NCBI GenBank assembly: GCA_016867725.1
Contig: VGIX01000001.1
Span: 99,575 to 163,574, forward strand
Length of the DNA: 64,000 nt
Direction of reading: 5' to 3'
Origin: Candidatus Effluviviaceae Genus I sp.
GTDB lineage: Bacteria > Joyebacterota > Joyebacteria > Joyebacterales > Joyebacteraceae
Shown: one piece after another, positions 1-62,745 of the stretch
Numbering within the stretch: position 1 is the first letter of the stretch
Layout of the letters: every line of letters starts with the position of its first letter
Position numbers and translations under genes: made by a program
Notes under the pieces: generated by a model
The model's database searches: none
Told to the model about the DNA's origin: nothing
What the model saw: only the letters and a program-made list of their open reading frames with translations

Positions 1-862
1 TCGCGCCCGCAGCCGCGCTCACCGATCTTCCGTAGTACTCGCGGTTCGTCGCCAGCCCGCCGGGGAACACGCCGGCGTCGAGGAACTCGCGGACGCCGCG
101 CAGGAGCGGCACGCTCGCGAGATCGATCTCGAGGGTCACGCGGCTCGCCCGCGCCATGGCGGACGCGTGCCCCGCGAGGCCGAAGCCCGTGACGTCGGTC
201 GCGGCCGTCGCTCCCGCCTCGACCATGGCCTCCGAGGCCGCGCGGTTCAGTCTCCTCATCACGGCCGTCGCCTCAGCGAGGCTCTCGGCGGAGAGCTTCC
301 CCTCCTTGAGCGCCGTCATGAGAATGCCCGTTCCGAGCGGCTTCGTGAGCGCGAGCGCCTGCCCGGGGCGCGCGCCGGCGTTCGTCACGACGCGCTTCGG
401 GTGGACCGTCCCCACCACGGCGAGCCCGTACTTGAGCTCGCGGTCGCTCACCGAGTGGCCGCCGACGATCGACACGCCGGCCTCGGCGGCCGTGTCCTCT
501 CCTCCAAGGAGGATCTCCGCCATCGCGTCCGGCGGAAGCTCCCCGTCGGGGAAGCACAGCACGTTGAGCGCCATCACGGGCCTTCCGCCCATCGCGTACA
601 CGTCGGAGAACGCGTTGGCCGCTGAGATCCTCCCGAAATCGCGCGCGTCGTCCACGACCGGCGTGAAGAAGTCCACTGTGAAGACGAGCGCGACCTCGTC
701 GTTCAGAAGGTAGACCCCGGCGTCGTCCACGGTGCCCTCGGAGACGAGCACGCGTGGATCCGCGATGGGCGGCAGCTTGGCGAGCACGGGAAGCAGGTCC
801 TCCGGACCCAGCTTCGACGCTCAGCCCGAGCAGCGCACCTTCTGTGTGAGCTTCCAGTCCAT
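1..862 (-). CDS. selD: Selenide, water dikinase SelD, 3' end truncated by the window edge. Predicted selenoprotein: in-frame TGA (Sec) at 821..823, codon 14.
   Basis: Minus-strand translation from ATG 860..862 (RBS GAGGGA 4 nt upstream) gives MDWKLTQKVRCSG-U-ASKLGPEDLL... then ...VDFFTPVVDDARDFGRISAANAFSDVYAMGGRPVMALNVL..., the AIR-synthase-like SelD fold. The TGA aligns with E. coli SelD Cys17 (GCGCK vs GUASK). The frame stays open for 287 codons to position 2. The ORF track missed it because of the TGA and the truncated end. Confidence 0.85.
785..823 (-). other. Sec (UGA) codon of selD at 821..823 plus a candidate bacterial SECIS stem-loop immediately downstream in the mRNA (lower coordinates).
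   Basis: mRNA: UGA GCGUCG AAGCUGGGUCC GGA GGACCUGCUU. The GGUCC/GGACC core extends with G-U wobbles to about 7-10 bp and starts about 7 nt after the UGA. Confidence 0.5.
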
Positions 863-928
863 CCGTCCCTCGTTCCGGGCGCCCGCCCTCGCGGGAACCG
901 GCGCCCGCGCCCCGGACCCGGCCGCCGC

Positions 929-2733
<1,805 letters not shown>

Positions 2734-2758
<25 letters not shown>

Positions 2759-24553: not shown

Positions 24554-25669
<1,116 letters not shown>

Positions 25670-33390: not shown

Positions 33391-34662
33391 CTACGCGATC
33401 TCGGAGAGGCCGCTCACGTACGGGCGCAGCGCGTCGGGGACGACGATCGTGCCGCGGTCGGTCTGGTAGTTCTCGATCACGGCGATCACCGTGCGGGGCA
33501 GCGCGACGCCGGAGCCGTTCAGCGTGTGCACGAAGCGCGCCTTGCCGCCGCCCGCCGGGCGGTACTGGATCCCCGCGCGCCGGGCCTGGAAGTCCTCGAA
33601 GTTGCTGCACGAGGAGACCTCGAGCCAGCGGCCGCAGCCCGGCGCCCACACGTCGAGGTCGTAGCACTTCGCGGCGGAGAACGAGAGGTCGCCCGTGCAC
33701 AGCGCCTTCACGCGGTACGGAAGGTCGAGGCGCTGGAGAATGGACTCGGCGCACGCCGTGAGCGACTCGAGCTCGTCGTACGAGGTCTCCGGCTCCACGA
33801 GCTTGACCATCTCGACCTTGTCGAACTGGTGCACGCGCACGAGCCCGCGTGTGTCCTTGCCGTACGAGCCCGCCTCGCGGCGGAAGCACGGCGTGTAGGC
33901 CGTGTAGCGGACGGGAAGCCGCTCGCCGGGCAGGATCTCGTCGCGATGGATGTTCGTGAGCGGCACCTCCGCGGTCGGGATGAGGAAGAGCTCGTCGCCC
34001 TCGCAGCGGTACATGTCGCTCTCGAGCTTCGGCAGCTGGCCCGTGCCGACCATCGAGTCGCGGTTGGCGACGAACGGCGGCGAGATCTCCGTGTACCCGT
34101 GCTCGGTCGTGTGGACGTCGAGCATGAACCGTATGAGCGCACGCTCGAGCAGGGCGCCCACTCCGACGAAGGTCACGAAGCCCGACCCCGCGATCTTCGA
34201 GGCGCTCCGGAAGTCGAGAATGCCCAGGGCCTCGCCGATCTCCCAGTGCGGCACGGGCTTCGCGGCGAGCGGGTGCGGGTCCCCCCACGACCGGACCGTG
34301 ACGTTCTCGTCCTCGGTGGCGCCGACGGGGACGCTCGCGTGCGGGACGTTCGGGATGGTGAGCTCGAGCGCGCGCACCTGCTCGCGCGCCGCGGCGATGC
34401 GCTCGTCGTGCTCCTTGATGCGCGCAGAGACGCCCCGCATCCTCTCGACGATCTCCGAAGCGTCGCCGCCCTCGCGCTTGAGCGCCGCCACCCGCTCGCT
34501 CGCCTCGTTGCGCTCGCGCTTGAGATCGTCGGCCGCGACGAGAAGCCCGCGGAGCTCGGCGTCCAGCTCGAGCAGACGGTCGAGGTCGGCCTTCTCCCCC
34601 TTGTCGCGGATCGCCGCGCGGACGACGTCGGGGTTCGCACGGATGAACCTGAGATCGAGCAC
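33391..34662 (-). CDS. serS: Seryl-tRNA synthetase
   Basis: 423 aa; N-terminal coiled-coil and class II catalytic motifs (FRREAGS, GSGVALPRTVIAVIENYQ). Confidence 0.95.
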   Translation of the reverse strand: MLDLRFIRANPDVVRAAIRDKGEKADLDRLLELDAELRGLLVAADDLKRERNEASERVAALKREGGDASEIVERMRGVSARIKEHDERIAAAREQVRALELTIPNVPHASVPVGATEDENVTVRSWGDPHPLAAKPVPHWEIGEALGILDFRSASKIAGSGFVTFVGVGALLERALIRFMLDVHTTEHGYTEISPPFVANRDSMVGTGQLPKLESDMYRCEGDELFLIPTAEVPLTNIHRDEILPGERLPVRYTAYTPCFRREAGSYGKDTRGLVRVHQFDKVEMVKLVEPETSYDELESLTACAESILQRLDLPYRVKALCTGDLSFSAAKCYDLDVWAPGCGRWLEVSSCSNFEDFQARRAGIQYRPAGGGKARFVHTLNGSGVALPRTVIAVIENYQTDRGTIVVPDALRPYVSGLSEIA

Positions 34663-34703
34663 GGGCGCATCCCCTGCGCGTCGCGACTCGCGCGACGGCG
34701 CGT

Positions 34704-35861
34704 TCAGCGCACTTCGACGGTCTCGCTGGGACGCCGAGAGCGCCGCCCGCCGGTATAGACCCGGTCCCGGGGCACGAGGATCGCGAGGTCGTCACGGTCC
34801 GGGATCCGGATCGCGACGCGGCGCGCGCCCGGGGCGGACTGCACCATGCCCGCGGTCACCGGAACGCGGAAGAGCCTGAGGCCTAGGAACGCCATGCCCC
34901 CCGCGGCCGCGATGGTCGCCAGGGGCAGGACCACGGGGCTCCGACCCATGAAGCGGGACACGACGACGGCCGTCGCGGTGAGCGACAGCGACATGATGTA
35001 GATGGCCAGGGCCGTCTGGCGCGAGCTCAGTCCCAGGCGCGCGAGGCGGTGCGAGCTGTGGTCGCGCCCGCCCTCGGAGAGCCTCCGCCCGTCCATGAGG
35101 CGGGACACGGTCACGAGCGTCGCGTCGAAGATCGGGTAGCCGAGCATGAGGACCGGCACGAGAAGGGACGACGCGCCCGTCCCCGCGTTCGCCACGGCGC
35201 GCAGGGACAGCCCGCCGACGACGTACCCGAGGAAGAGGCTGCCGGCGTCGCCGAGGAAGATCGAGGCCGGCGACGAGTTGTACCGCAGGAAGCCGAGCGC
35301 CCCTCCGGCCACGGAGATGGCCGCGATGGCCGTGGGCACGTGGCCGTTGCCGAGCGCCAGCGTGAAGATGCCGAACGTGGCGATCGCGGCGAGCCCCGAC
35401 GTGATGCCGTCCATGTTGTCGAGGAAGTTGAAGGCGTTCATGAGCCCGACCATCCAGAAGAGCGCGAGCCCGTAGGCCAGGGGAAGCGGCAGCGGGATGC
35501 CGTCGACCCCGCCCGACAGCAGCATCACGAGGGCGGCCGCGGACTGCCCGGCCAGCTTCGTGGCCGGCCGCATGCCGTTGGCGTCGTCGGCCAGCCCGAG
35601 CACGATGACCATGAGGCCGCCGGACATGAACCCGACGATCCTCGCGCTGTACGGGCACCGGATGAGGGCCAGCGCGGCCGAGGCGGAGGCCAGGCTCGCA
35701 AGCGCCACCGCGACGCCGCCCATGAGCGGCGTGGGGGTCGCGTGCACCTTCTGTCTGTTCGGGTAGTCGAGAAAGCGGAGGCGGGTCGCCAGGCTCCTGA
35801 CCGCCGGGGTGAGCGCGATGACGGCGAGCATGGACAGCCCGAAGGCGCAGAGGAAGACCAT
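34704..35861 (-). CDS. Undecaprenyl-phosphate N-acetylhexosamine-1-phosphate transferase (WecA/MraY family, GT4-type)
   Basis: Polytopic membrane protein; NAFNFLDNMDG and FLGDAGS motifs. Confidence 0.8.
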   Translation of the reverse strand: MVFLCAFGLSMLAVIALTPAVRSLATRLRFLDYPNRQKVHATPTPLMGGVAVALASLASASAALALIRCPYSARIVGFMSGGLMVIVLGLADDANGMRPATKLAGQSAAALVMLLSGGVDGIPLPLPLAYGLALFWMVGLMNAFNFLDNMDGITSGLAAIATFGIFTLALGNGHVPTAIAAISVAGGALGFLRYNSSPASIFLGDAGSLFLGYVVGGLSLRAVANAGTGASSLLVPVLMLGYPIFDATLVTVSRLMDGRRLSEGGRDHSSHRLARLGLSSRQTALAIYIMSLSLTATAVVVSRFMGRSPVVLPLATIAAAGGMAFLGLRLFRVPVTAGMVQSAPGARRVAIRIPDRDDLAILVPRDRVYTGGRRSRRPSETVEVR

Positions 35862-54719: not shown

Positions 54720-56726
54720 CTACTTCAGAAGCGCCATCTTCGTCGTGCGCGTCTCGCCGGCCCCCGAGAGCCGCGCGAAGTACACGCCGGACGCCAGCGC
54801 GCGACCGCCGTCGTCCGTCCCGTCCCACGCGATCGCGTGCGGCCCGGCGGCAAGATCACCGTCCACGAGCGTGCGCACCGCGCGGCCGTTCACGTTGTGC
54901 ACGGCCAGCGTCACGCGGCCCGCGTCGGCCGGCACGGTGAAGGCCAGCGTCGTCGTCGGGTTGAACGGGTTCGGGAAGTTCTGCCTGAGCGCGAGCGTCG
55001 TGACCGGCGGCGTCTCGGGCACGCCGGTCGGGATCGGCCCGAACCAGTGCAGGATGCGGTTCATGAGCGTCCGCTGGTTGTTCGGGTCGGCCGCGGCCGT
55101 CTTCACGCACTCGAACGGGAACGACGTGAACACGACGCGGTGGCCGCGGCCCGCGGCCTTCAGCGCCTTGATGCCGTTCGCGGCCGTGAAGATGCCGTCG
55201 GCGGACGCGTTGAGTTCAACGCTCTCGCTCCCCGACACCGAGAACGGCCCGCCGGTGATCCCGAGGGACATCCCGTCGGAGATCGGATCCCCAGCCACGC
55301 CCGTCATAATGAAGCCGCCCGTGTTGTTCGACCACGAGGCGATGTGCAGGTAGTCGCTGGTGAAGGTCGTCGCCCCGGTGCGGCTGCTCAGATACCCCAT
55401 GCTCGAGAGGAACAGGTTCCCGCCGCCGTCCAGGTACGCGGCCATCGCGGCTTCGTTTGCCGCGTTGATGGCCGACCCGTCGGTGTTGGCGGTCGTCCAG
55501 AAGACCGCCCAGAAGTCGTTCAGGAGGAGCTGCAGCGGTCTCCCCTTCGCGCTCGCGTCCCACACGAGCGGCGTGTACCCGTTGTCGAGGACGGCCTGCC
55601 TGAGGTGGCTCTCGTACGAGGCACCTCCGTCGTCGTCCACGATGAGGATGGACGGGAGGTCCACGAACACGCCGAACGACGCGCTGGCCGTCTTCAAAGC
55701 GTTGGTTCTACTCGTCGCCGTCAGCGTCGCGGTCCCGAGCCCCCGCACGGTGCCGATGAAGTCCGAGATCTCCACGGAGAACCGCTTCTCCTCGCCTGCC
55801 TCGAAGTGGTAGGTCTGCGCCGTGATCCAGCACACGTCGTCCGGATCACACGCGATCGCGAGCCACTCGTATGGGCCGACCTCAGGCGGGAAGACCGACG
55901 AGAGGCTGACCCTGATCGAGTCGGCCACGGTGCCGGTGTTCTTGATCTTCGCGAAGAACTTCCTGCTCTCGAGGTATCCCATCTCCGCGGCGTACGATTC
56001 GGGCGACATGCCCACGCCGTACGGCTCGCGCATGCACTGCGCGTTCACGATGAGCCGCGGCGACTCGACCTTCTCGATGAACGCCGCAATCCACACGTTC
56101 GCGTGGTTCCACGACGAACTCAGGACAAGGCTACGGTAGACGGTCACCGAGTCGCCGACGGCCGAGAGCGTCACGTTCTCCGTCGGCAGCATCTTGCGCA
56201 CCGTCCATGGGTAGTCCGTCCCGATGTTCTCGTACACGACGAACTGGGCGCGGAGCGGACCGAGAGTGTGAGGTTCGACGGCCTTGAACGTGGCCTCGAT
56301 CCACGTCGTCCCGGGGTCGTCCACCACGAGGCCCTTCGTCCTCATGACGATCGGCGTCGAAGCTGCCTTTCGGGCCGCGTAAATGGGTTCGTAGGTATCG
56401 CGCACGGTCGAACCCGCTCCGATGACCTCGACCACCGAGTCCCAGTCGACCTCGGGGATGCCGCCCACCCCGTAGTAGGTGGCGCGCGCCTGCGTCTCGG
56501 TCGTGGAGTAGGCGTCGTTCAGGTGGTAGTAGAGGACGACGAGGTTGTCCTTGCCGTAGTCGTTCTGCATTGCCTGGAGCGCCGCACGGGCGTTCGGGCA
56601 GTACCCTCACCACGTGGCCCCGAACAGCTCCGCGAGGACCGCCCGCTCCGCCGGCACGGCCGTCACCGCGCCGCCGAGCAGCAGGGCCGCTGCGAGTCCG
56701 ATCATCGCCGAACGCTTCATCGTCAT
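54720..56726 (-). CDS. Predicted selenoprotein: secreted thioredoxin-fold protein with a UxxC motif (Sec40 encoded by TGA 56607..56609), central domain of unknown function, and a T9SS C-terminal sorting domain
   Basis: ATG 56724..56726 with RBS GGAAGGGAGA. Signal peptide MTMKRSAMIGLAAALLLGGAVTA, then ...AVLAELFGATW-U-GYCPNARAALQAMQNDYGKDNLVVLYYH... read straight through the TGA. The downstream paralog aligns as ...VVLAELLTTRP-C-ANCPNAEAGLHTVLGEYGAGNLCVIAYH..., with a Cys at the TGA position. The C-terminus QNFPNPFNPTTTLAF...LAVHNVNGRAVRTLVDG...AIAWDGTDDGGRALASGVYFARL...TTKMALLK is a T9SS sorting domain. The ORF track called only 54720..56570. Confidence 0.8.
56560..56609 (-). other. In-frame UGA (Sec) codon 56607..56609 and GC-rich region downstream in the mRNA that may hold the SECIS
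   Basis: mRNA: UGA GGGUACUGCCC GAACGCC CGUGC GGCG CUCCAGGC; short GC stems within 40 nt of the UGA. Confidence 0.4.
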
Positions 56727-59359: not shown

Positions 59360-59896
59360 CTACTCCTGCTTGGTCCGCTCGGGGCAGCCCGCCGGGAGGA
59401 GCGAGCGCACCGCCGCGTCGAGCTCGGCGTGGTTCTGCGGCCGGTATCCGGCCGTCGCGTAGACGATCTCCCCCTTCGTGTTGATGAGGACTGTGCGGGG
59501 GACCGCCGACACGTGGAACTTCCGGGCCACGTCCTGCGACGTGTCGAGCACGACGTCGAACGTGTGCCCCTTGGAGGCGATGAGCGCCCCGACGCGCGAG
59601 GCCGACTTCGGGCCGTCGATGGACACCGCGACGACGCGCAGGCCGCAGTCGGCATACTTGTCGAGCACCTGCTGCAGGTCCGGGAAGGCCTTGATGCAGG
59701 GCTTGCACCAGGTCGCCCAGAAGTCGACGACGACCGGCCCGCCCTTCAGAAGCTCCGACAGCGTGAGGGACTTGCCCTCGACGTTCGGCAGCGTGAAGTC
59801 GGGCGCCTTGGTCGGCGTCGCGCCGAAGGCGCACGTCGCCGCCACGAGCAACACGGCGGCCCAGCCGCTTGTGCCTACACCTCGCCTCTTGGTCAT
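59360..59896 (-). CDS. TlpA/ResA-like thiol:disulfide oxidoreductase (thioredoxin fold, membrane-anchored)
   Basis: 178 aa; signal/anchor; FWATWCKPC active site; 3-nt gap to the downstream OMP gene. Confidence 0.85.
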   Translation of the reverse strand: MTKRRGVGTSGWAAVLLVAATCAFGATPTKAPDFTLPNVEGKSLTLSELLKGGPVVVDFWATWCKPCIKAFPDLQQVLDKYADCGLRVVAVSIDGPKSASRVGALIASKGHTFDVVLDTSQDVARKFHVSAVPRTVLINTKGEIVYATAGYRPQNHAELDAAVRSLLPAGCPERTKQE

Positions 59897-59922
59897 GAGT
59901 TCCCCCTGACCTTTCCTAACTG

Positions 59923-59951
59923 ATTATACCACCATGAATAGCGTTGGTCAA
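59923..59951 (-). promoter_or_regulatory. Near-consensus sigma70 promoter for the tlpA, OMP, CxxC-lipoprotein and selenoprotein operon
   Basis: Minus strand, in an AT-rich island: -35 TTGACC (59946..59951), 17-nt spacer, -10 TATAAT (59923..59928), about 20-nt leader with RBS AGGGGGA before ATG 59896. Confidence 0.55.
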
Positions 59952-59974
59952 GGACGCTTCGGGGCGGTGACCGC

Positions 59975-60640
59975 TCAGGGTCCGGCTCCCACGGCGTGCG
60001 CGGGCTCGCATGCGGGCGCTCCGCCCAGGCGGCAGAGGATTCTGTCGAGCGTCTCCTCGATGGCGCCCTCGTCGGAGACGAGATCGACGCCGTCGGTCTC
60101 GAGCGTCAGCACGCTGGTCGCCCGGGCCGCACGCGCGCTCCAGTCGTCGTAGGCGGAGTTCAACGCGTCCAGGTAGCCCGCCGAGATCTCCTTCTCGCAG
60201 TCGCGCCCGCGGCAGCGTATCCGCTCGAACAGGCTGGGCACGTCCGCGCGAAGGTACACGACGAGGTCCGGAACCCTGAGGAAGCTCGTCATCGCGTCGA
60301 AGAGCGCCACGTAGTTGGCGTAATCGCGGTCGGCCATGAAGCCCTGGCGATGCAGTGTCGCCGCGAAGATCTCCTTGTCCTCGTAGATCGTCCTGTCCTG
60401 AATGCACGGCTCGCCGAGCCGGACCATGTCGCGGTGGATCTCGAAGCGCTTCGAGAGGAAGTACACCTGCAGGTGGAAGGCCCAGCGCGTCATGTCGGCG
60501 TAGAAGTCGTCCAGGTACGGATTGTCGATGACAGGCTCGTAGTACGCGCGCCAGCCGAGGCGGTTGGCGAGGAGCGTCGTGAGGTGCGTCTTGCCCACAC
60601 CGATGTTGCCCGCCACGGCAACGAACTGACCGGGTCGCAT
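59975..60640 (-). CDS. Deoxynucleoside kinase (dGK/dCK family)
   Basis: VAVAGNIGVGKTHL P-loop; ERS-like motif region; 221 aa. Confidence 0.75.
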   Translation of the reverse strand: MRPGQFVAVAGNIGVGKTHLTTLLANRLGWRAYYEPVIDNPYLDDFYADMTRWAFHLQVYFLSKRFEIHRDMVRLGEPCIQDRTIYEDKEIFAATLHRQGFMADRDYANYVALFDAMTSFLRVPDLVVYLRADVPSLFERIRCRGRDCEKEISAGYLDALNSAYDDWSARAARATSVLTLETDGVDLVSDEGAIEETLDRILCRLGGAPACEPAHAVGAGP

Positions 60641-60734
60641 GGAGGCGCTCCGGGAACGAGGGCTGCGTCTGTCGGGAGCCTCGCCGTCGAGGCGCCCAGA
60701 ATCTATTCCCGGCGCGCGCCAGTGTCAACGGCTT

Positions 60735-61127
60735 TCACGGGAGGACCGCGACGCGCGTGCCGGGACCGACCACGCTCGCGACAACGACGAGGTCCTCGTT
60801 CCGCAGACGGACGCAGCCGAGCGTGCAGCGCGTGCCGACGGTGTCCGGCTCGTCGGTCCCGTGGATGCCGATGCCGGTCCACGGCGGCGTCGCGAGTCTG
60901 ATGAAGAGGGGGCCGTAGGCGCGCCTGCCGTCGTGCTCCCAGTCGCTCGAGTCCTCGATCGAGACGACCTCGAACTCCCCCTCGGGCGTGCGGCAGTCCC
61001 CCTCGGCCTTCTTGTCCGCGCCGTCGGGGTTCGCGCCGATCGCCGCGGGGAACCTCAGCGTGCCCTCGGCCGTCTCGAGCTCGAGCACGAAGGCCGACTT
61101 CCGCACGACGACCCGCGGCAGCGTCAC
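60735..61127 (-). CDS. L,D-transpeptidase catalytic-domain protein (YkuD family)
   Basis: HGTDEPDTVGTRCTLGCVRL, the conserved His and Cys catalytic motif. Confidence 0.75.
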   Translation of the reverse strand: MTLPRVVVRKSAFVLELETAEGTLRFPAAIGANPDGADKKAEGDCRTPEGEFEVVSIEDSSDWEHDGRRAYGPLFIRLATPPWTGIGIHGTDEPDTVGTRCTLGCVRLRNEDLVVVASVVGPGTRVAVLP

Positions 61128-61198
61128 TGCCCTTTCCTCCCGCCGCCGTCCTTCTCAGCCTCGCTCGCCCGCTCCGCGGGCCTGCACGCGCCTCGCAG

Positions 61199-61294
61199 TC
61201 AGGTGGAGACGCCGAGGCGCGGGAGCACGACGAGCTGCAGGATGAGCCACGCCGCCAGGAAGACCACCGGGAACGCCACGTTCGACCATCTCAC
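61199..61294 (-). CDS. Possible small hydrophobic peptide (31 aa), GTG start
   Basis: GGAGG 8 nt upstream of the GTG; VRWSNVAFPVVFLAAWLILQLVVLPRLGVST; speculative. Confidence 0.2.
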   Translation of the reverse strand: MRWSNVAFPVVFLAAWLILQLVVLPRLGVST

Positions 61295-61323
61295 CGCACG
61301 ACCTCCGCCTGGGGCCGGCACCC

Positions 61324-61347
61324 GGGCGCGCCCGTCGGGGCGCGCCC
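61324..61347. terminator. Tandem self-complementary GC palindrome forming a 10-bp hairpin directly downstream of tlpA2
   Basis: GGGCGCGCCC-gtcg-GGGCGCGCCC, 26 nt after the tlpA2 stop (61373); no U-tract. Confidence 0.4.
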
Positions 61348-61372
61348 GTTCGCCCGGCCGATTGCCTCTCCC

Positions 61373-61978
61373 CTACACCTCCTGCGGCGCGCCCTCGATG
61401 AGCTTCACGACCTCCTCACGGAGCGCATTCCCGATGGCCGGGGTGAACCCCACGTGCTTCGCCGCGATCCTCCCGTCCGGGCCGATCACGAACGTCATGG
61501 GGATCGAGCTGACCTTGTAGGACGCCGCGACGGGCTTGTCTCCGACGAGCACAGGATACGAGACCTTGTTGGCCGCGGCGAAGGGCCTCAGCACGTCGGC
61601 TCCACCGTCGTCGAGTCCGATGCCGACGACCACGAGCCCCCGGTCCCTGAACTCCTCGTACAGCCCGACGAGGAACGGGATCTCCTGGCGACAGGGCGGA
61701 CACCACGTCGCCCACAGGTCCAGCACCACGACCTTGCCCTGGAAGTCGGACAGCGAGACATCCCGCCCGTCGACGTCCTTGAGCGTGAAGGGCGGCGGCG
61801 TCATCCCGACGTCAACGCCGACGGCCGCCGAGCCCGGAACAGCGGACCCGCCGCTCGCCTCGCCTTGCGTTGCTGCATCCGCGCCGGCCGGGGGCGTCTC
61901 CTGCCTTGAGCATCCCGCCGCGGCGAGGACCGCCACCGTGAGCATCCCGACCGCAAGCCACCTCAAGAACTGCGCCAT
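61373..61978 (-). CDS. TlpA-family thiol:disulfide interchange lipoprotein
   Basis: Lipobox LAAAGC; LWATWCPPC active site; 201 aa. Confidence 0.85.
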   Translation of the reverse strand: MAQFLRWLAVGMLTVAVLAAAGCSRQETPPAGADAATQGEASGGSAVPGSAAVGVDVGMTPPPFTLKDVDGRDVSLSDFQGKVVVLDLWATWCPPCRQEIPFLVGLYEEFRDRGLVVVGIGLDDGGADVLRPFAAANKVSYPVLVGDKPVAASYKVSSIPMTFVIGPDGRIAAKHVGFTPAIGNALREEVVKLIEGAPQEV

Positions 61979-62038
61979 GTCACTCCCCCTTCTTTGCTGT
62001 TGCGCCGAGCCCGCCGGCCTCGCAGCCGGCCCTTGCCG

Positions 62039-62371
62039 TCAACCCGCGATCGCGTTGATGCGCTTCTGGATGGTCTCCTTCGGGCCGGCACCGACCATCC
62101 TGTCGACCTCCGCCCCACCCTTGAAGAAGATGAGTGTCGGGATGCCCCGCACGCCGAACCGCTGCGCGAGCCCCGGGTTGTCGTCGACGTTGACCTTTAC
62201 GACCTTCGCCTTGCCCTGGTTCCCCGCCGCGATCTCCTCGAGCACGGGCCCCACCATCCGGCACGGTCCGCACCACGGGGCCCAGAAGTCCGCGACGACC
62301 GGGACCGCCGACGTCGCGACCTCGGCGTCGAACGTCGCCTCGCTCACATCCACGGTCTTCGCTGATCCCAT
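62039..62371 (-). CDS. trxA: Thioredoxin
   Basis: 110 aa; FWAPWCGPC; RBS AAGGGGG; start at the internal Met 62369..62371. The Arg-rich extension of the ORF-track call is rejected. Confidence 0.9.
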   Translation of the reverse strand: MGSAKTVDVSEATFDAEVATSAVPVVADFWAPWCGPCRMVGPVLEEIAAGNQGKAKVVKVNVDDNPGLAQRFGVRGIPTLIFFKGGAEVDRMVGAGPKETIQKRINAIAG

Positions 62372-62373
62372 GT

Positions 62374-62745
62374 TCACACCCCCTTCGCCTTGCGAGCGCC
62401 TCCGAGCGCGGCCGCGACGATCGCGGCCGCCGGACCTTCGTTCAGCCGATAGCACACGAGATGGCCGCGTCGCTCCGCCGAGATGAGCCCCGCGTACCGC
62501 AGCCTCGTCAGGTGCTGTGACACGGACGGCTGCGGAATGCCCAGGAGCTCCTCCATGCGCTTGACGCACAGCTCTCCGTCGCACAGGAGGGAGACGATCC
62601 GAACGCGCACCGGATGCGCCAGGGCCCGGAAGACGGCCGCGGCGTCATCGAGCTCCGCCGCGTTGCCGGGTCCCTCCTCGCCGACCTGTCCGAACCTCTT
62701 CGCCCCGGACCGCACCAGTACGGCTCCTCCCATGCAGGAGAACAT
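62374..62745 (-). CDS. ArsR/SmtB-family transcriptional regulator
   Basis: HPVRVRIVSLL...ELCV...QPSVSQHLTRLRYAGLI winged HTH. The start may instead be Met5 (62733), since the promoter leaves only a very short leader to 62745. Confidence 0.8.
   Translation of the reverse strand: MFSCMGGAVLVRSGAKRFGQVGEEGPGNAAELDDAAAVFRALAHPVRVRIVSLLCDGELCVKRMEELLGIPQPSVSQHLTRLRYAGLISAERRGHLVCYRLNEGPAAAIVAAALGGARKAKGV

Follow-up and report, generated by a model that had tools for sequence, protein, structure and literature searches.

A selD gene with an in-frame TGA lies at the left edge of the window

The leftmost gene of the window (the whole 64,000-nucleotide stretch of DNA that was analysed) lies on the minus strand, occupies positions 1..862 and continues past the left window edge. 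Its ATG start (860..862) stands five bases downstream of a Shine-Dalgarno-like GAGGGA (871..866). From this ATG the frame reads MDWKLTQKVRCSG, then TGA as codon 14 (821..823), then ASKLGPEDL. The sequence after the TGA (ASKLGPEDLLPVLAKLPP...) contains no further stop down to base 1, where the window ends after 287 codons of the gene, and the GC3 of the frame is 0.92, which is coding-like for a genome of 71% GC. The upstream neighbour on the same strand is glmS (929..2758), identified from the ORF list, from Pfam GATase/SIS domains on two other contigs (L161 and L162) and from the record MBM3306776.1, which NCBI names as coming from a Candidatus Eisenbacteria bacterium. We used glmS to retrieve L161 and L162: both encode an identical GlmS, and they have 3-4 mismatches relative to the window over 7 kb. 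Read on these near-identical contigs, the full gene has 342 codons and contains no other stop or frameshift. Between glmS and the minus-strand gene the intergenic hairpin has a z-score of +0.22, and no promoter-like or terminator-like site was found there.

The product belongs to the SelD family. With Cys put in place of the TGA, the 287-residue fragment scored 355.8 bits against TIGR00476 (the selD equivalog, cut-off 125) and 302.4 bits against NF002098 (cut-off 299), and the domains AIRS (PF00586) and AIRS_C (PF02769) are recorded on the called selD product. HMMER aligned the fragment over its full length to the SelDs of E. coli (3u0o, E 8.8e-65) and Aquifex aeolicus (2yye, E 3e-60). When aligned to 3u0o, residue 14, encoded by the TGA, falls on Cys17, and Lys17 (codon AAG, 812..814) falls on Lys20, which is essential in E. 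coli SelD; the D-rich motifs VDDAGVY, TVDFF, SDVYAMGG and TDVTGFGL are also kept. From these comparisons we consider it very probable that the window holds the 5' five-sixths of a selD gene in which Sec14 replaces the catalytic Cys of the N-terminal glycine-rich loop (S-G-U-A-S-K, within the motif R-C-S-G-U-A-S-K). An earlier sequence-only reading of this DNA had proposed a Sec14 SelD. Its coordinates for the ORF and the TGA were correct, and the SelD identity and the correspondence to Cys17 that it relied on were confirmed by the family score and the alignment.

The same codon is TGA in most SelD homologues surveyed

We compared the homologous codon in 159 loci, consisting of 80 species-representative genome loci and 79 usable metagenome loci. 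The codon was TGA in 140 of them and TGC or TGT in the other 19, across many phyla. TGA was present in 66 of the genome loci and in 74 of the metagenome loci, the remainder encoding Cys. With 140 TGA and 19 Cys codons at this one position, the in-frame TGA goes far beyond what chance would give. Conserved motifs flank the codon on either side, and the counterpart of Lys17 was invariant (159/159). Moreover, every one of the TGA loci encoded the (R/K)LT...G-x-G motif in frame 5' of the TGA, so that a start of translation downstream of the TGA makes no sense. The closest relative, L081 (79% identity), also has the MDW... start and carries the same TGA within MDW(H)LTQKVRCSG-TGA-ASKLGPEDL.

Two further features of this loop were seen. 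The window SelD has a Cys three residues before Sec (C-x-G-U), at codon 11 (832..830), and the same arrangement is found in L002, L005, L010, L013, L017, L029, L090, L094 and L109; this residue could act as a resolving Cys for a selenenylsulfide. Many Sec-type SelDs, that of the window included, lack a Cys at the position of E. coli Cys19.

A tRNA-Sec gene follows selD

On L161 and L162 a tRNA-Sec gene with the anticodon TCA is located 55 nt after the selD stop codon (L162:7321-7418; L161:12981-13078), which places it about 220-320 nt past window base 1. On these contigs it scored 76.6 bits against Rfam RF01852, for which the gathering score is 47. The selD-selC pair is also present in L081, with the tRNA-Sec at L081:1869-1967. 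We considered whether this adjacency reflects a general linkage and dropped the idea, as of the 140 TGA-type loci just two had a tRNA-Sec within the fetched flanks; the linkage is thus specific to the window's lineage.

Inside the window there was no tRNA gene and no Rfam match. A seryl-tRNA synthetase gene is present at 33391..34791. Neither selA nor selB was found in ~79 kb, made up of the 30 coding-like ORFs of the window, ~9 kb to its left and ~5.5 kb to its right. The sequence-only reading had named selA, selB and tRNA-Sec as genes often linked to selD, and had regarded a genome without selB or selC as evidence against Sec. The tRNA-Sec part of this expectation was confirmed, selC being present 55 nt downstream; selA did not turn up in the ~79 kb, nor did selB in the window and its ~15 kb of flanks.

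After selC comes a gene for a 322-aa PP-loop ATPase (L162:7449-8417; L081:1999-2967) with an SGGxDS motif, weak ThiI/MnmA-like matches and an NFACT-R_2 domain. We dropped it as a candidate selenium-linked gene: among the surveyed loci it was beside selD only in the window's lineage and in L081, and its place next to selD-selC is probably local synteny.

A hairpin downstream of the UGA fits the bSECIS model

Folding of the RNA downstream of the UGA gave a hairpin on the minus strand, GAAGC-U-GGGUCC-GGA-GGACCU-GCUUC (815..790). Its extended stem begins 5 nt after the UGA, its upper stem (809..795) 11 nt after and its GGUCC core 12 nt after, and the apical loop GGA (803..801) lies 17 nt from the UGA. 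The stem-loop noticed in the sequence-only reading is therefore present, but the start of about 7 nt that was given for it is wrong. The bSECISearch consensus is that of Zhang and Gladyshev 2005, as given in PMC13188914. According to the legend of Fig. 2 in that paper, the bSECIS model has an apical loop of 3-9 nt, an upper stem of 4-16 bp, a G in the first two loop positions, a distance from UGA to loop of 16-37 nt and an MFE of at most -7.5 kcal/mol. The 815..790 hairpin agrees with four of four criteria (3-nt loop GGA, 6+5 bp, 17 nt, -16.4 kcal/mol) and is the sole bSECIS-compliant hairpin in the range of 16-37 nt after UGA 823..821. In the Rfam searches no SECIS family matched, even at E up to 10.

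In a window of 71% GC, the hairpin alone is not beyond chance. Its MFE z-score was -1.05. Half (50%) of 350 random window TGAs precede a bSECIS-compliant hairpin; in 18% the compliant hairpin is at least as stable as the one after the selD UGA, and in 3.7% there is a hairpin that is equally stable and also has a GG loop. In 62% of trials, synonymous recoding of the peptide produced a hairpin of the same stability at some position. Because of these three results (the z-score, the recodings and the random TGAs), we rejected stability as a discriminator. A rise of predicted bSECIS-like structures with GC content has been described (PMC12013277). Recoding with the structure held fixed gave a P of 5e-5, the stem U's being provided by the rare codons GGT (5.3% of Gly) and CTT (7.3% of Leu). 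However, when 149 random coding sites were put through this test, the median P was 0.004, and 45% of the sites were at or below 0.002. We discarded this result as an artefact, since the structure had been derived from the sequence itself.

Compensatory changes were sought in 14 relatives that have the hairpin in the same register; none was significant and the core was invariant. Pairing in these relatives was 63.6% versus 60.9% in shuffled data and the covariation score was 0.117 versus 0.092, values that were reached by 20/500 and 54/500 shuffles, respectively. The RNAalifold consensus kept only three invariant pairs.

Synonymous sites around the hairpin are conserved

The hairpin draws its support from the conservation of synonymous sites, seen with one close relative and in phylogenetically related sequences. 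Between the window and L081, 36% of the 242 degenerate codons with identical amino acids differ synonymously, and the 60 nt after the UGA differ at a single base. Within codons 9-27 one of 18 degenerate codons was synonymously changed, versus 39% elsewhere in the gene (P about 0.002, for this one relative). The longest run without synonymous change in the gene is 15 codons long and begins at codon 16, just past the UGA.

A second signal comes from the sixth codon after the TGA, whose third base is the 18th nt past the UGA. We examined the Sec-type relatives with GAC at the ninth codon counted from the TGA, and the third base of the sixth codon was U in 38 of these 48 distinct sequences (kinship ignored). 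This U is found across codons for Ser (AGU), Gly (GGU), Ala (GCU) and Pro (CCU), in genes where U3 averages 12%. Its partner in the GUCC/GGAC core, which is common to Sec-type relatives, is the A of GAC. Seven of the 10 exceptions are P-K-D-L sequences (e.g. L004), which have a shifted hairpin, GCCCCAA-GGAC-UUGGGGC. In addition, across the family, Sec forms have a more stable fold downstream of the Sec codon than Cys-type homologues have downstream of the Cys codon (92 versus 19 distinct sequences, kinship ignored; Mann-Whitney P about 1e-5 to 2e-6).

Comparison of the first 50 nt after the selD Sec codon in L001-L160 revealed three positions of the hairpin. The loop is ~17 nt from the UGA in the window type and in delta-proteobacterial-like relatives, ~20 nt from it in the actinobacterial type (GCCCCAA-GGAC-UUGGGGC), and ~32 nt from it in the Gemmatimonadota and Chloroflexota types (CUGGCGCAG-GUN-CUGCGCCAG, with an fdhF-like GGUC/GGUG loop). 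This last hairpin is lost in five Cys-type Gemmatimonadales genes, where the mean MFE is -3.4 versus -9.6 kcal/mol. It is possible, although we offer it tentatively, that the Sec-SelDs of several phyla share a mini-SECIS (N-G-U-C-C / G-G-A-C with a G-rich loop of 3-5 nt at ~17 nt and the synonymous U), that other clades moved the hairpin ~15 nt downstream, and that selD-selC in Eisenbacteria is a self-dependent selenium module. If this were true, SelD would be a natural series for how far a bacterial SECIS can slide.

Could Sec be inserted with the help of an element other than the drawn 815..790 hairpin, either a larger or alternative fold or one that follows no model? We think this unlikely, while noting what speaks for it. 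A 48-nt structure whose lower helix takes in the UGA itself is an example of an alternative fold, the tests of stability and covariation do not single out the drawn hairpin, the compliant hairpins of relatives stand at three different distances (~17, 20 or 32 nt), and, according to reviews, not every bacterial SECIS conforms to a consensus (PMC13188914, PMC12013277). On the other hand, 815..790 is the one compliant hairpin at 16-37 nt, the run free of synonymous change covers exactly its region, and the GUCC/GGAC core with its third-position U is held in common with the Sec-type relatives. The 815..790 hairpin is thus the likely SECIS of the window selD, a rating that we keep at this level because the supporting tests ignore kinship. 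The SECIS-like hairpin of the sequence-only reading retains its fit to the bSECIS model, but its support is weaker than was implied there and comes from synonymous sites, not from stability or compensation.

Other readings of the TGA are improbable

We then weighed the readings in which no Sec is inserted. If the TGA were a true stop, the locus would comprise a 13-codon leader peptide and, from GTG codon 26 or 38 onwards, a SelD devoid of the glycine-rich loop. Both public annotations start in this way, in-frame GTGs are present at codons 26 and 38, and selA and selB were not seen in the window or its flanks. Nevertheless, this reading is very improbable. The shortened protein would lack both the Sec/Cys and the Lys that match Cys17 and Lys20, while an LTxxxxxxG motif is encoded in the 13 codons before the TGA throughout the 140 TGA loci and a Cys codon takes the place of the TGA in 19 homologues. 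Furthermore, the changes relative to L081 5' of the TGA include synonymous ones (CTC/CTG, ACA/ACG), as expected for coding sequence, a good Shine-Dalgarno precedes the ATG at 862, and tRNA-Sec adjoins the gene. The sequence-only reading had itself recognised that a start 3' of the TGA would speak against a Sec-containing SelD; the catalytic loop, kept in frame in 140 loci, argues against such a start.

A UGA read not as Sec but as Trp, Gly or Cys, be it under a reassigned code or by near-cognate read-through, is in our estimate highly improbable. Reassigned UGA codes do exist in some uncultured bacteria, and the failure to see selA and selB in the window or flanks would suit this reading as well. 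However, about half of the window's coding-like ORF segments end in TGA, and with so many ordinary ORFs terminated by it the genetic code is not reassigned. The tRNA-Sec that adjoins the gene is bona fide and has the anticodon TCA, and the homologues without TGA have Cys at this position, not Trp or Gly. Least credible of all are a pseudogene in decay and a TGC/TGT misread as TGA in sequencing or assembly. One base separates TGA from these codons and the source is a metagenome assembly, but the window shares this TGA with L081 and with L161 and L162, two assemblies made independently from other samples. The 342 codons contain no other stop or frameshift, GC3 is 0.92, and TGA is the majority codon in the family.

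We return to the reading of the gene as a Sec-containing SelD, which, taken as a whole, we hold with high confidence on the basis of the sequence comparisons. For the steps of Sec insertion we infer the following from the established bacterial pathway (PMC1794560, PMC9312934). Seryl-tRNA synthetase would charge tRNA-Sec with serine, and SelA would make Sec-tRNA(Sec) from the seryl form with selenophosphate as the donor. At UGA 823..821, SelB-GTP carrying Sec-tRNA(Sec) would bind the apical part of the 815..790 hairpin and deliver Sec at codon 14, and termination would be avoided. The finished SelD would then convert selenide and ATP to selenophosphate. As selenophosphate is the selenium donor for SelD's own Sec, the synthesis of SelD would depend on its own activity.

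The window contains a second candidate selenoprotein

Judged from the gene content, the predicted Sec14 SelD together with the adjacent tRNA-Sec indicates Sec decoding of UGA in this Candidatus Eisenbacteria population. This makes a second in-frame TGA in the window (56609..56607) credible, and the support that the sequence-only reading saw in selD for a second selenoprotein is borne out. The TGA is located in a minus-strand gene (54720..56726) for a candidate secreted thioredoxin-like selenoprotein. A signal-peptide-like N-terminus (MTMKRSAMIGLAAALLLGG...) precedes ELFGATW-TGA-GYCPNA, where Sec would give a U-x-x-C redox motif, and the C-terminus of the product carries a FlgD_ig domain. Aligned with the immediately upstream tandem paralogue (31% identity, E 1e-23), the TGA corresponds to the first Cys of C-A-N-C. 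In the JGI annotation the gene is broken into two calls, of 39 aa and 616 aa. This secreted protein would be the more interesting of the window's two selenoproteins.

Near this gene, on the same strand, is a thiol-redox cluster (59360..62745). It holds two AhpC/TSA-redoxin genes (59360..59923 and 61373..62038) and, according to JGI calls on contig L163, also a thioredoxin gene and an ArsR-type HTH regulator. It is separated from the second candidate selenoprotein by a DUF6029 gene and an Omp28-like gene. The only other window TGA with coding-like sequence on both sides in the same frame is at 24554..24556 on the minus strand. We rejected it as a Sec site, as it is an ordinary boundary at which the upstream gene ends and a ROK-family kinase (LGIDIGGTN...) begins just after.

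Public records omit the catalytic loop of this SelD

Both public calls of the window selD start after the TGA. The NCBI protein (MBM3306775.1, 317 aa) starts at GTG codon 26 and the JGI call (305 aa) at GTG codon 38. These starts are annotation artefacts, and they arise because the TGA is read as a stop. The sequence-only reading had noted that its list of open reading frames had no call at this locus; in the same way, the public records hold only N-terminally shortened calls. The main value of the locus thus lies in annotation, since the public records omit the catalytic loop and the Sec. With these left out, the lineage would be taken for one with a defective or Cys-less SelD, and its Sec-decoding trait would be missed. 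In our literature search no paper joined 'Eisenbacteria' with all three of the selenium terms used. Knowledge of SelD or of Sec insertion is unchanged by the window selD, and the new points are minor: the Eisenbacteria lineage, the rare selD-selC adjacency and the shortened public calls.

Comparison with known SelD proteins and SECIS elements

Sec-containing SelD is textbook material. FdhA and SelD have been described as "the most widespread selenoproteins", and Sec-SelDs were catalogued by Zhang et al. 2006 (PMC1794560). Like the window gene, the known bacterial Sec-SelDs have UGA at the position of the catalytic Cys and a hairpin directly downstream. The window gene differs from them in coming from the candidate phylum Eisenbacteria and in having tRNA-Sec immediately downstream. 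The SelD of Aquifex aeolicus (PDB 2yye/2zod, solved as the Cys form) belongs to the same TIGR00476 family and has the S-G-U-A-x-K loop; its chain reads SSGCAAKVGP where that of the window reads CSGUASKLGP. The Cys at -3 of the window SelD (C-S-G-U) is shared by some, but not all, relatives. E. coli SelD (3u0o) has the same AIRS/AIRS_C fold family, Lys20 and Asp-rich metal/ATP motifs, whereas its Cys17 and Cys19 correspond to Sec and Ser in the window SelD.

As for the hairpin, the minimal SECIS of E. coli fdhF, which has a bulged U and a GGUC-type loop, begins 11 nt past its UGA. In the window hairpin the upper stem likewise begins at 11 nt, and the base immediately 5' of this stem is an unpaired U. 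The two elements differ in the loop, which is GGUC in fdhF and GGA (3 nt) in the window, and the window hairpin has no covariance-model match. With the bacterial SECIS consensus it shares its form and its place, as both are stem-loops in the coding region just past the UGA.
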